Part shown: positions 7,817 to 17,096 of the stretch, piece by piece
Layout of the letters: every line of letters begins with the position of its first letter
Numbering within the stretch: the first letter of the stretch is position 1
DNA from: Candidatus Freyarchaeum deiterrae
GTDB lineage: Archaea; Asgardarchaeota; Jordiarchaeia; Jordiarchaeales; Jordiarchaeaceae
Direction: 5' to 3'
NCBI GenBank assembly: GCA_037305845.1
Contig: CP147778.1
Location: 2,368,001 to 2,432,000 of the forward strand
DNA: 64,000 nt
Made by a program: the position numbers and the translations under genes
The notes under the pieces: model-generated
Told to the model about the DNA's origin: nothing
The model's input: the letters and a program-made list of their open reading frames with translations, nothing else
Databases searched by the model: none

Positions 7817-8350
7817 ATGCCCAAAACGGTGCCCAAAACAAGCGGTGAGAGTTTGAGTAGTTTGATTGAACATTTCAATTCAATTGGGAGCACAATCAAT
7901 GATTTGACCAAAACCTTTGGTAAGATACTAAGCGAAACTGATAATCGTCTAAAAGAAGCAGAAGCAAAAAATTCGGAACTTGAGGCATTCCTAAAAAAAG
8001 GTGATTCCTCTTTAAAAAATGATTTGGAAAAATTGAATGGGGCTCACGAGAATTTAAAGAACGAATTCGTGCAGAGAGAGGCGGAGATTCAGAGATCAAT
8101 TAAAAGCCTTACAGAGAACCAGAAGCGCATTCTATCCGCTCAGGGATCTCTTGAAATTTCTATTCAAAAACTAGAACAGAAATTTGACCAGCTAAATACA
8201 CAGATGGAAAAACGCTTACTGGAAATCTCCGAGAACATATCAAATGTAATATCTCCAGTGGAGAACTGGAACAAGGAAATGAACGCCATAAAAGCGGAGG
8301 TAGGTAGACTATCTCGTGAAATAGAAAAAAGACTTTTGGGTGAGAAGTAA
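7817..8350 (+). CDS. Coiled-coil protein of unknown function
   Basis: Continuous heptad pattern; stop codon abuts the next start. Confidence 0.7.
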   Translation: MPKTVPKTSGESLSSLIEHFNSIGSTINDLTKTFGKILSETDNRLKEAEAKNSELEAFLKKGDSSLKNDLEKLNGAHENLKNEFVQREAEIQRSIKSLTENQKRILSAQGSLEISIQKLEQKFDQLNTQMEKRLLEISENISNVISPVENWNKEMNAIKAEVGRLSREIEKRLLGEK

Positions 8351-9811
8351 ATGCTGGAATTTGAGGATACCAAATCAGGAACAATACATCGTTTTTATAT
8401 TGTAGACGCTCACCACCATTTAGGACAAGATGTTGATGGTCACAATAATCGAAACCCACTTGCACCCGGCGGAACATTCGATTTCTACGTCAAAGTAGGA
8501 GGACAACTTTCACAAATTTTTTCCGATAAACCTGATATTTTTAGAATTAGTCCCTGCGGTTTTATGAACGAGTTTATGCGAAATAATGAGAAGTGGAAAG
8601 ATACTCTGGATGGAACGTGGGCTGTGGATCAGACCGTTGTCTTCCCTTTCAACGATGATTTCAAGTGGCGGGAGGGAGACGAAGGTAATGCAACTTACTG
8701 GCGTTCTAACGATAATATCTCGAGGTGGGTTACCCGAGCCCCATATTCCTTTAGGTTGATCGGTTTCGGAAGAGTGGTTCCAACCGAGGGCGAACTAGCG
8801 ATAAAAGAGCTGCATAGAATGGTAGAAACCCTAGGGCTTAGAGGATTAAAGGTTCATCCGCGATCAGACGGTTGGAGTAGTAACATAGTTTCCCCAGAAG
8901 TAAAAAACATTCTAGTGGAAGCGGCAAAACTTAACATTCCAGTCCTCTTTGATACTAGAGGCTTTGGTCAGGTAATGGATATAAATGAAGTAACAAATAT
9001 GGCTAGAAGTGAACTAAAATCTATAGATAAGTCGCTTGTGGACAATCTCAGAGTAATTATGGCACATATCGGTTTTCACTTGGGGCATGATGAACTGTTC
9101 ACAGTATTGAGCCATCCTAACCTCTATGGTGATGTCTCAGGGGTTCATGATGCAGGGGTTTCTAGATTATTCGAAGAAGCCAAAGAAATTATGCCACCCA
9201 ATCTAGGAAGATATAGAAACTGGTCAGAGAAAATACTTTTTGGGACTGACTATAACTACTTTGATGTACCGCACGCGGTTCAATTCATGTCATATGTTCT
9301 GAGTAAAGATTTCCCAGGAACTCCCGAAGACGCGCAGCGTGTTCTGGGATCCAATATTTTGAAACTGGTTCCTCCATTCAAAAGGGAAACAAAAACAACT
9401 TTCACAAAGGTTCATGTGCCAATTGAATTAGCGGAGTTAACAGAAAACACATTAGCAAAACAGGTCGCGGGAATAGCTAACAATGAATCATACGATATTT
9501 CCGGCGTTGACTTTTTCATAGATCCGCATCCTAACTTTCAAGTTAGGCCTCGCGACTTCAAGATAACAATATCCCACAAGGAAAACAATCATCAGGAAGA
9601 CATAAACCTTATAGTAATTTCGGTATTAGATATACTAACAGTAGCCAGATTAGATAACGATATGATGAACGCTTCACCAATAAAAAACAGAATACTTCGA
9701 TACGACGACGCAATTTCACGCAGATCATTCTACGAAAAGCTCTGGCCCAAAAACCTGGAAACCAATCCTCAAAAAATGTCCGATTTCATAAAATCGATAA
9801 CCCAAACTTGA
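8351..9811 (+). CDS. Amidohydrolase (TIM-barrel, amidohydro_2-like) with extra C-terminal domain
   Basis: DAHHH, GLKVHP, MAHIG and LFGTDY motifs. Confidence 0.85.
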   Translation: MLEFEDTKSGTIHRFYIVDAHHHLGQDVDGHNNRNPLAPGGTFDFYVKVGGQLSQIFSDKPDIFRISPCGFMNEFMRNNEKWKDTLDGTWAVDQTVVFPFNDDFKWREGDEGNATYWRSNDNISRWVTRAPYSFRLIGFGRVVPTEGELAIKELHRMVETLGLRGLKVHPRSDGWSSNIVSPEVKNILVEAAKLNIPVLFDTRGFGQVMDINEVTNMARSELKSIDKSLVDNLRVIMAHIGFHLGHDELFTVLSHPNLYGDVSGVHDAGVSRLFEEAKEIMPPNLGRYRNWSEKILFGTDYNYFDVPHAVQFMSYVLSKDFPGTPEDAQRVLGSNILKLVPPFKRETKTTFTKVHVPIELAELTENTLAKQVAGIANNESYDISGVDFFIDPHPNFQVRPRDFKITISHKENNHQEDINLIVISVLDILTVARLDNDMMNASPIKNRILRYDDAISRRSFYEKLWPKNLETNPQKMSDFIKSITQT

Positions 9812-9906
9812 TAATTCAAACTAAAATGATAATAAAAAATAACCACTCCCCTTCTTTAACAAATTAAATTTGTTAGTCAACACAGAAAGATGGGAGGAAA
9901 GCAAAA

Positions 9907-15016: not shown

Positions 15017-15026
15017 ATACCTTCCA

Positions 15027-15818
15027 CTAAGTAAATTCTTTCTCTGCTATTTCACATAAAACTTTAATCAGTTCACGAATTTTATTTATCTCAATAATAT
15101 CACTTGTGATAGTCAAATCAAGTACAGAAATTTCAACATTTTGTAATTCTGCCATAACCTTTAAACAATATGTGAGACTACCTCCTCCCAAAACATTTTC
15201 ATCGTCTAGTATGTTAAAACTTTTGCCAAGTGATCCTCTGAATTTCGCCAGAACATTACGAGGGTCTCTTCTAAAATTTTTGTCAACAAAAATTCTACTT
15301 CCATCCGAAGGTAATTTAGGTAGCGTCCTCAAATTAATTATAATAGCTCCCTTATTTTTCGACTTACTAATCTTTTCTACAAAGAGTGATTGAACAATTT
15401 TCGCGAAGTTCTCGCTTACATCTACTTTTCCCTCATAATCTGGGAAAAAGAAGTAATTGAAGGTTCTCTCGCCGCTTTCAAATTCTTCGTAAATCTTATT
15501 AACGGTACTAAATAATTTGTTATTGCCCTCACCGTAGGAAGTAGAACAAATAGCGAGGGGAATTCCCAAATTTTTCGTTTCTGAAACGGCGCTTATTCTT
15601 CCACTGCCCTTAAACGCTTCTACCTGCTCTGAAATCGAGGCGCTGTCAACCGTCTGTTCCAAAGTTGGGAAAACCTCTGTTTTATACTCAGAAACCAGAG
15701 AAATCGTTTCGCTTAAAACGTTCTTATATTTTTTCAACAGTTCAGAGAATTCCGAAGCTGCTCTCTCAAGCTTATTCGTAGCTTTCTCCGGCTCGTTATC
15801 TGTATTCAATACTATCAC
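15027..15818 (-). CDS. Hypothetical protein; N-terminal helix plus a possible degenerate N-formylglutamate amidohydrolase-like alpha/beta domain
   Basis: Abuts both neighbours. AIIINLRT...ENVLGGGSLT...VLDLTIT loosely echoes the FGase fold but lacks its metal ligands. Confidence 0.5.
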   Translation of the reverse strand: MIVLNTDNEPEKATNKLERAASEFSELLKKYKNVLSETISLVSEYKTEVFPTLEQTVDSASISEQVEAFKGSGRISAVSETKNLGIPLAICSTSYGEGNNKLFSTVNKIYEEFESGERTFNYFFFPDYEGKVDVSENFAKIVQSLFVEKISKSKNKGAIIINLRTLPKLPSDGSRIFVDKNFRRDPRNVLAKFRGSLGKSFNILDDENVLGGGSLTYCLKVMAELQNVEISVLDLTITSDIIEINKIRELIKVLCEIAEKEFT

Positions 15819-17096
15819 CTACTTGTTCCCACGAAACTCCTTCATTGTTCTAATAATTTCTATTTCCCGCTTCTTAAAATCCCCCAATTGTTCATTCAGA
15901 ACATTCATAGTTGTCCTAACTTCCTCCACCATACTCTCTATAACAGAGCTTTTCCCATTCAGTAGCTTAATAGCTTCTTCCAACCCTCCGCCTGCAATTT
16001 TACCCAAATTAGCGATTCTCGCCTCTATCTGTCCAACCTTACTTTCAACAGCCTTAATCCGACTCACCTCTCTCTCCAGATTTCTAACCCTGTTCTCCAA
16101 CTCCAAAAGTCTTTTACCAAAAAGATCGAAAGGTCTGCTCTTCTCTCCTCCCTCCGCTGACTCAACCCCGGCAGTATTCACGTTAGCCGTCAGCGATTCA
16201 GTAGTTCCTTTCTCAACCTCCCTACCAGCTGAGTTTGGTGACGTTTCTTCCCCAGTAATGCCCTCATTCACGTTTCCCGTTTCCCCAACAAGCTCTGGTT
16301 TTTTGACCGCTTCCTCTTTCACTTCAATTCCTCTAAGGTAAGCATCGTATACTTCCCCAAAGATTTCCGAAAACTCCCTATTATCCGATTCTTTATTACT
16401 AGTGGAAAAGATGCAGGTCATCTTATTCGCGTAGTTTAAACCCAAAAACCCTACTTTGTTAAGCCACCAATTAAAAACGCAGGATGAAAAGGCTTTATCC
16501 TCGAACCAGTTTTGAATAGATTTAACCAGCAGGTTATATTCGCGAGATGCTAATTCTCCTTTCTCAAACTCGTTTCTAATCCAAACATAGTTAAATAATC
16601 CGGTCTCCACACCTCCCTTCAACCAGTCAGAAACTCCCTCCTTAAAAATTCTCATACCAGTGTACCTGTAAGAGCGTTCCTCAAAACCCAGAATCGAAAA
16701 CATGTGGGCAATAAGTGACTTGGTATCCTTCTCCTTAGTTCTAAAAACACAAGCCCACTTCTCTCTTCCATCACAAACACAGCAGAATCTATCCACCTCG
16801 GAATCCAAAACAAGAATACACGAGAGTCCTGATTTGTAAATTAGAGGTACAACCACTTCGCCTGCAAGCAAATTCAAAAGCTTAATCACCGGATAAGAAT
16901 TCAAAGGATCAAGAACAGGTCCCCTATACGTACACAAAGTATAAGCTTTACTCGGATCTTTCTCTAAATCCTCGAGAAAGTCTCCCAAATCATCTGTCTC
17001 AACAAAAACAAACCCAGTGACTGTACCGTATTGGGCGCCAAACCATTTTGTTAGCCATCCCTTTAGTTCTTCAGCATGTCTCTTCATAAGAACCAC
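15819..17096 (-). CDS. Hypothetical protein: globular N-domain, low-complexity linker, C-terminal coiled coil
   Basis: 425-aa ORF with AAGGTG SD-like site upstream; first gene of the ligase operon. Confidence 0.7.
   Translation of the reverse strand: MVLMKRHAEELKGWLTKWFGAQYGTVTGFVFVETDDLGDFLEDLEKDPSKAYTLCTYRGPVLDPLNSYPVIKLLNLLAGEVVVPLIYKSGLSCILVLDSEVDRFCCVCDGREKWACVFRTKEKDTKSLIAHMFSILGFEERSYRYTGMRIFKEGVSDWLKGGVETGLFNYVWIRNEFEKGELASREYNLLVKSIQNWFEDKAFSSCVFNWWLNKVGFLGLNYANKMTCIFSTSNKESDNREFSEIFGEVYDAYLRGIEVKEEAVKKPELVGETGNVNEGITGEETSPNSAGREVEKGTTESLTANVNTAGVESAEGGEKSRPFDLFGKRLLELENRVRNLEREVSRIKAVESKVGQIEARIANLGKIAGGGLEEAIKLLNGKSSVIESMVEEVRTTMNVLNEQLGDFKKREIEIIRTMKEFRGNK

Follow-up and report, generated by a model that had tools for sequence, protein, structure and literature searches.

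Two facing operons in the Asgard archaeon Candidatus Freyarchaeum deiterrae, one encoding a carboxylate-amine ligase and the other an amidohydrolase and a Cdc48N-vWA protein, raise the question of whether they form a single system and, if so, what that system might do. The cluster lies at positions 7817 to 17096 of the window, the 64,000-nucleotide stretch of contig CP147778.1 (assembly GCA_037305845.1, positions 2,368,001 to 2,432,000) that was analysed. The initial annotation had read it as a candidate ligation and deconjugation system assembled from a writer, an eraser, a reader or adaptor and scaffolds. We found that the ligase, hydrolase and vWA genes are a conserved triad in Asgard genomes, that the vWA protein is predicted to bind the ligase, and that glutathione-type synthesis by the ligase is unlikely. 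The features of the cluster, in window coordinates, are as follows.

7817-8350, plus strand: coiled coil of 177 residues, accessory; abuts the hydrolase gene and, among the loci read, was seen in this genus only
8351-9811, plus strand: Amidohydro_2 metal-dependent amidohydrolase, core; candidate eraser
9907-11367, plus strand: Cdc48N-vWA protein without an ATPase, core
10834-10836, plus strand: codon of K310 of the vWA protein, motif KxGRGxGE; candidate acceptor lysine, from conservation
11441-15016, minus strand: carboxylate-amine ligase of 1191 residues, core; alternative start ATG at 15010
11456-13588, minus strand: chain of six beta-sandwich (Ig-like) domains of the ligase, from the structure model
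14498-14539, minus strand: short loop P160-H173 of the ligase, 12-14 residues in the clade and 35 in E. coli YbdK
15027-15818, minus strand: protein of 263 residues resembling N-formylglutamate amidohydrolase (FGase), probably inactive, accessory
15819-17096, minus strand: globular region of unassigned fold with a C-terminal coiled coil, 425 residues, accessory; found in this order only

All six reported open reading frames (ORFs) were present, three on the plus strand facing three on the minus strand, and the convergent sets are separated by 73 bp near position ~11400 (11367 plus to 11441 minus). Stop and start codons abut between the coiled coil and the hydrolase and again between the globular and coiled-coil gene and the hydrolase-like gene, while the spacing is 10 bp from the hydrolase-like gene to the ligase and 95 bp from the hydrolase to the vWA gene. 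The description of two tightly coupled three-gene sets was thereby confirmed, although the operons are predicted from gene spacing and strand; promoter and terminator counts at the cluster were at chance level in a scan of bacterial type, the host being archaeal. Pfam recognized the amidohydrolase (Amidohydro_2, E 2.6e-17), the vWA domain (VWA, E 8e-7) and the ligase (GCS2, E 4e-8).

The linkage of the two operons, which had been left unproven, holds on the comparative evidence of synteny, one-operon forms, fusions and co-inheritance. All three core genes were found in 90 of 161 Asgard genomes, none in 63 and a partial set in 8 (ligase 93, vWA protein 94, hydrolase 96), figures that are given as counts, kin genomes not being independent. 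The same nine families carry each of the three genes, and the core genes were not found in the remaining Asgard families searched. Co-occurrence of the operons elsewhere, one of the points on which the initial annotation had staked its proposal, was thus seen in nine Asgard families and beyond. Leaving the 177-residue coiled coil aside, the other five genes keep their layout in both families of this order. In Thorarchaeia the ligase lies about 8-10 kb from the vWA and hydrolase genes, in family f21 the hydrolase, ligase and vWA genes follow one another in a single-strand operon, and in family f9 the vWA gene is retained at an unlinked position. Natural fusions include hydrolase-vWA chains and a vWA-ligase chain (P0230). 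The genome itself holds a second locus, near 2.92 Mb, in which hydrolase and vWA genes converge on a ligase gene, as well as a third vWA copy.

Several observations were made at these loci in passing. The second triad copy (L049, 3629-14472; about 2.92 Mb in the genome) encodes a 1399-residue ligase, and its flanking genes encode a longin-like protein, a small GTPase and a winged-helix protein. The f21 loci (L135, 2633-7497, and others) have a small GTPase and a 304-residue uncharacterised gene ahead of the triad, with a divergent HerA-like ATPase of 1030 residues. In families f25 and f6 the ligase operon contains a protein of about 800 residues with a C-terminal EAP30/Vps36 (ESCRT-II) domain, E 3e-19 (L141, 5962-8379; L042, 11560-13944). 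In Thorarchaeia the cluster goes on (L152, 14540-18200) with a further two vWA proteins, of which one ends in an Ig-like tail, and with a protein of 385-411 residues.

Beyond the Asgard archaea, a Hydrothermarchaeota locus carries the same three genes, with two vWA copies and one lone Cdc48-N gene, and the triad also occurs in soda-lake contigs and in further metagenome contigs. In the soda-lake contigs two ubiquitin-domain genes lie upstream of the hydrolase and have a small domain in common with the N-terminal extension of the ligase; a neighbour of this type was not found in the present genome (best E 0.07). A quick tree of 124 ligase domains gave a core clade of 91 rows with a Shimodaira-Hasegawa-like approximate likelihood ratio (SH-aLRT) support of 100 and placed other lid-less ligases between this clade and YbdK; the soda-lake ligases grouped with one named Thermoplasmatota. 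Three sister ligases carry C-terminal Cdc48-N domains, and among 28 sister-ligase loci, many on short contigs, several have a Cdc48-N neighbour and several an amidohydrolase. In one sister lineage a gamma-glutamylamine cyclotransferase gene abuts the ligase, which suggests that the product is a gamma-glutamyl amide made from free glutamate. The contig with this gene (L168) is labelled Ca. Cloacimonas, a bacterium, and its genes look archaeal.

The other genes of the cluster are more narrowly distributed. The coiled coils had been proposed as scaffold parts of the system, but neither belongs to the core, given their restriction to this genus and this order. The 425-residue protein probably starts at ATG 17087 (422 residues); its interpretation as two roadblock/longin domains, or as a homologue of the 385-411-residue neighbour in Thorarchaeia, was without profile support. 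The gene described as degenerate hydrolase-like is likewise accessory. As a lead only, the 263-residue protein resembles an FGase-type fold, with an atlas score of 0.92 to a cluster in which FGase is assigned to 22% of the members and a template-modelling (TM) score of 0.53. It had no Pfam or PDB sequence match, its family has no conserved His, and it is probably inactive. Distant homologues immediately precede the ligase gene in Jordarchaeia, Thorarchaeia and Promethearchaeota, where in the last group the homologue is the C-terminus of a 600-residue protein; the protein, a weak query, was not found in 5 genomes of 3 other carrier families. Because the coiled-coil and FGase-like genes are lineage-restricted, the system is best described as a triad with lineage-specific additions.

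What the triad might do depends first on the ligase. In the model (predicted local distance difference test, pLDDT, 83.7) a YbdK/GCS2-fold domain, residues 14-470, is followed by six Ig-like beta-sandwich domains, in line with the Ig domains of the initial annotation. The catalytic domain matched YbdK best (Z 34.4, root-mean-square deviation 2.7 over 329 aligned residues; PDB 1r8g, 1tt4; PF04107), followed by plant glutamate-cysteine ligase (GCL, 26.2), Dop (19.7) and PafA (19.4), and structures of the glutamine synthetase (GS) type reached Z 13-16 only. A particular likeness to PafA and Dop, the comparison drawn in the initial annotation, was therefore not supported. The superfamily signature, GhExE, acidic residues in strands 2 and 3, HxH in strand 4 and ExRxxD in strand 6 (PMC2588565), is matched by E22/E24, D109, E120, H173/H175 and E285/R287/D290. 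The residues conserved across 82 clade ligases are E22, E24, D109, E120, H173, H175, R233, R271, E285, R287 and D290. The superfamily also has an Arg on strand 5 and another in the preceding loop; R233 is Arg in all 82. Judged from the alignment, the metal- and glutamate-binding residues are intact. The archaeal ligase thus has in common with YbdK the fold, the GxExE, HxH and ExRxxD motifs and the glutamate-binding Arg, but it differs in a three-strand insertion, in its appended domains and fixed partner genes, and in two features of the active site. The position of the strand-5 Arg of YbdK is Y or F throughout the clade, and R271, five residues earlier (R in 76/82, K in 5/82), may substitute for it. 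The stretch P160-H173 is short in 82/82 clade members, 22 residues being absent relative to YbdK between strands 3 and 4.

The segment that is absent is one that we take to be part of the cysteine pocket of YbdK, with its Arg-Tyr motif. Since this lid is deleted across the clade, glutathione-type synthesis is unlikely, as the initial annotation had judged. The plainest alternative, an ordinary glutamate-cysteine ligase that makes gamma-Glu-Cys beside unrelated neighbours, agrees with the database names and with the best structural matches, YbdK and plant GCL. However, the protein scores 84 bits against the NCBIfam cut-off of 176.4 for TIGR02050 and falls below all other NCBIfam cut-offs as well, the lid is missing, and the gene is co-inherited and fused with its neighbours, so that this explanation is very improbable.

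The Ig-like chain is variable among relatives; it is absent in short Promethearchaeota forms and replaced in others by membrane anchors, zinc ribbons or HhH/SAP regions. Foldseek matches of the chain to alpha-2-macroglobulin and complement were rejected as generic tandem-sandwich matches with a TM of about 0.13. Elsewhere in the genome, a stand-alone ORF of 389 residues (L132, 8389-9558; genome 1449388-1450557, minus strand) is homologous to the last three Ig domains of the ligase, E 1e-18. Giant ligases of 2200-3800 residues (L155, 10001-18352; P0206, P0211, P0219, P0226, P0233) have the catalytic domain near the C-terminus, and one giant ligase, with HhH and SAP motifs, has very large genes for WD40 and surface proteins around it.

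The amidohydrolase scored 63.9 bits against the Amidohydro_2 (PF04909) cut-off of 26.4 and keeps H21, H23, K167, H169, D201-x-R203, H239 and D300. Its metal ligands, HxH, KxH, H and the terminal D, are retained, with Asp at one usual His position, and the identification of an amidohydrolase in the plus-strand set was upheld. In the hydrolase-vWA fused copies the hydrolase metal ligands are lost. One such dead fusion, of 893 residues (L130, 9543-12224; genome 2361542-2364223), lies shortly before the start of the window, about 12 kb upstream of the cluster, and lacks the metal ligands, the metal ion-dependent adhesion site (MIDAS) of the vWA domain and its conserved lysine; similar fusions occur in Jordarchaeales, Thorarchaeia and family f6.

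The third core protein consists of an acidic tail (residues 1-58), a Cdc48-type N domain (about residues 63-235) and a vWA domain, the architecture given in the initial annotation. The CDC48_N profile matched 12 of 33 homologues (best E 9e-11), the model matches the N-domains of Cdc48 and NSF, and acidic tails are present on many copies. The MIDAS is complete (D248, S250, S252, T373, D407). Lysine occupies position 310 in 84 of 85 single-chain copies, the distant Hydrothermarchaeota copies included, and Arg never does. K310 is as invariant as the MIDAS residues; like these it is lost in the dead hydrolase-vWA fusions, and it is also missing in an unrelated vWA protein of the same genome. On this pattern of conservation K310 is the first candidate for an acceptor lysine.

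Whole-chain searches with the vWA protein introduced another possibility, that it is the ancestor of the N-terminal half of DEPDC5/Iml1, coupling glutamate chemistry to small GTPases. The top two Foldseek matches were DEPDC5 (9v0j_C, E 2.7e-10) and Sea1/Iml1 (8ae6_W, E 4.6e-10) over 417-435 columns, both proteins place a Cdc48-type N domain before a vWA-like domain, and several loci have genes for small GTPases or for longin-like or roadblock-like proteins nearby. The TM, however, was 0.36 only, with deviations of 10-12 and about 10% identity, and the E-values were near those of Cdc48 and NSF; when the vWA domain was compared by itself, to see whether SABA is its nearest relative, generic vWA domains filled the top 50 rows and seem closer to it, and PF12257 (IML1) did not match the vWA gene. 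Furthermore, the archaeal protein has an intact MIDAS, lacks the remaining 500+ residues of the GATOR1/SEACIT subunit and has ligase and hydrolase partners. In several Asgard families the module was not detected, and genes for GTPases and longins are widespread among Asgard genomes. The relevant passage of an Asgard survey reports NPRL2-like proteins and no DEPDC5 counterpart (10.1101/2020.10.19.343400). The domain order is common to the two proteins in the models, which need not mean common descent, and the ancestry proposal, although compatible with the reading that we favour below, is improbable.

Modelling of the ligase with the Cdc48N-vWA protein, the candidate reader or adaptor of the initial annotation, predicted that the two bind. 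Co-folding of the ligase domain with the vWA protein gave an ipSAE of 0.72, and the best of 3 controls gave 0.00; contacts agreed between runs to at least 71% and the partner pLDDT was at least 83. In the benchmark, 58 of 80 solved pairs and 2 of 110 mismatched pairs reached the mark for this score; for the present alignments these numbers apply only approximately. The modelled contacts are made mostly through the Cdc48-N barrel, residues 101-107 and 131-139, and conservation extends to several residues of the interface. The modelled interface also includes vWA-domain residue E309 and ligase residue 166, which belongs to the shortened loop; the two are not listed as a pair.

Taken together, we tentatively favour reversible gamma-glutamylation of a protein lysine, with K310 as the first candidate, and give this reading slightly less than an even chance. 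The ligase would phosphorylate the gamma-carboxylate of free glutamate with Mg-ATP, as its conserved GS/GCS-fold residues suggest, and the Cdc48N-vWA protein would dock on it through the Cdc48-N barrel. The acceptor site, open without the YbdK lid, would then accept a protein amine, most simply K310 or that of a client held at the MIDAS. The amidohydrolase would remove the gamma-glutamyl amide, and the glutamyl mark would change binding at the MIDAS. More speculatively, the Ig chains, membrane anchors, ubiquitin-domain proteins and coiled coils may set place and client in each lineage. Glutamate is the presumed donor because of R233 and the cyclotransferase neighbour, and a protein is the presumed acceptor because the site is open, the docking partner is obligate and one of its lysines is invariant. 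That such gamma-glutamylation and descent of DEPDC5/Iml1 from the vWA protein are both true is improbable.

Several considerations weigh against protein gamma-glutamylation, 1) the co-inheritance carries no P value, because kin genomes are not independent, 2) E309, and not K310 directly beside it, is in the contact list of the model, 3) K310 could instead be structural, or could be a basic residue supplied in trans to the ligase, since the strand-5 Arg of YbdK is Y or F there, 4) some sister ligases have a Cdc48-N partner without a vWA domain, or no detected partner, 5) glutamine synthetase also has a short loop at this place and uses ammonia, so the deletion speaks more strongly against cysteine than for a protein acceptor, and 6) known cyclotransferases act on free gamma-glutamyl amines. 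In the literature, FluG-type pairs of a GS-fold ligase and an amidohydrolase have been read as small-molecule enzymes (PMC6478659), and Iyer et al. described the superfamily as otherwise specialised in small metabolites (PMC2588565).

The strongest rival is a small-molecule pathway or signal like that of FluG or PuuA, in which the ligase would gamma-glutamylate a small amine and the amidohydrolase would process the product. The Cdc48N-vWA protein would be a regulatory subunit, contributing K310 and R313 in trans to complete the active site; the N-acyl-glutamate product would be bound by the inactive FGase-like protein. FluG joins an amidohydrolase to a gamma-glutamyl ligase, and neighbouring genes for type I glutamine synthetase (GSI) and amidohydrolase are known in bacteria (PMC6478659); the ligase without the strand-5 arginine, the cyclotransferase of the sister lineage and the FGase-like accessory gene also fit. 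The likeness to FluG and NodGS is confined to the pairing of an amidohydrolase with a GS-fold ligase, for FluG carries its GSI-type ligase in a single chain with the amidohydrolase and lacks a vWA partner (PMC6478659), whereas here the genes are separate and the ligase is YbdK-like. A simple metabolite enzyme would not be expected to come with a MIDAS protein as obligate partner, with Ig chains and giant appended regions, or with genes for ubiquitin-domain proteins beside it, and the core-gene neighbourhoods read have no redox or tailoring enzyme in common across classes. We consider the small-molecule explanation less likely than protein gamma-glutamylation, though still a strong contender.

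A Pup-like conjugation was also considered, in which a C-terminal glutamate would be ligated to target lysines and the Cdc48N-vWA protein would pass the tagged proteins to Cdc48 or the proteasome. The fold and chemistry are those of PafA, a GS-fold ligase of this kind being able in principle to form a gamma-glutamyl isopeptide on lysine (PMC2588565), Cdc48-N domains are also fused to sister ligases, the soda-lake loci contain ubiquitin-domain genes, and many vWA copies have acidic tails. On the other hand, no conserved small tag gene, such as a neighbouring Pup gene of 50-90 residues ending in G[EQ], was seen in the loci read, where the ORF lists began at 70-90 residues, and the ubiquitin domains of the soda-lake proteins are N-terminal, with no terminal GG. 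The C-terminus of the vWA protein, considered as a Pup-like donor, was rejected: it is Glu in 13 of 86 copies only and is not conserved. The PafA/Dop family (Pup_ligase, PF03136) had no match in the genome, while the control C. glutamicum matched; matches of PF02955 were uninformative, because that family matches controls too. No proteasome gene was among the conserved neighbour clusters annotated, and no Cdc48 or other AAA gene is linked, so the AAA+/proteasome connection drawn in the initial annotation was not borne out. The eraser, moreover, would be of a separate fold. Pup-like conjugation is accordingly improbable.

Protein gamma-glutamylation by the triad can also be set beside the TerY-P triad, which consists of a vWA protein, a PP2C phosphatase and a Ser/Thr kinase (PMC10542128). 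In both, a vWA protein is kept with an eraser and with an ATP-dependent writer that bears variable extra domains, and zinc ribbons occur in both. Here, however, the writer is a GS-fold ligase, the eraser a TIM-barrel amidohydrolase and the vWA domain is joined to Cdc48-N; the enzymes are not homologous, and PP2C and Ser/Thr kinase genes are absent beside the vWA gene, whose neighbours are GCS2 and Amidohydro_2. The three-part system therefore falls outside the pupylation, TerY-P, FluG and YbdK classes, each part coming from a known family and the function being predicted. No description of the module in Asgard archaea was found in the literature on ligases, pupylation, GATOR1 or vWA proteins with hydrolases, although it may be mentioned in some related work.

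Other genes of the window were noted. A gelsolin-domain protein with a Pro-rich linker (6543-7424, minus strand; weak Pfam match, E 0.0036) is divergent from the cluster, a position also kept in one same-genus locus (L033), and two phenylacetate-CoA-ligase-like genes (17384-19792, plus strand), kept in this genus only, adjoin the other end. Farther away are a KaiC-type ATPase fused to an Arf/Ras-like small GTPase, 387 residues (21143-22306, plus strand), an ABC ATPase of 540 residues with an N-terminal TrmB-like region (45944-47566, minus strand), a subtilase of 1410 residues with a weak GIFT-like domain (47632-51864, plus strand) and an ORF of 1094 residues with no Pfam match at E 0.001 (53730-57014, minus strand).

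To our knowledge, the Pup ligase and Dop are the only GS-fold enzymes known to act on proteins. If protein gamma-glutamylation by the triad is correct, it would be the second case of a GS-fold enzyme acting on proteins, one with its own eraser, and, with the triad carried by more than half of the Asgard genomes sampled, a new archaeal signalling chemistry.

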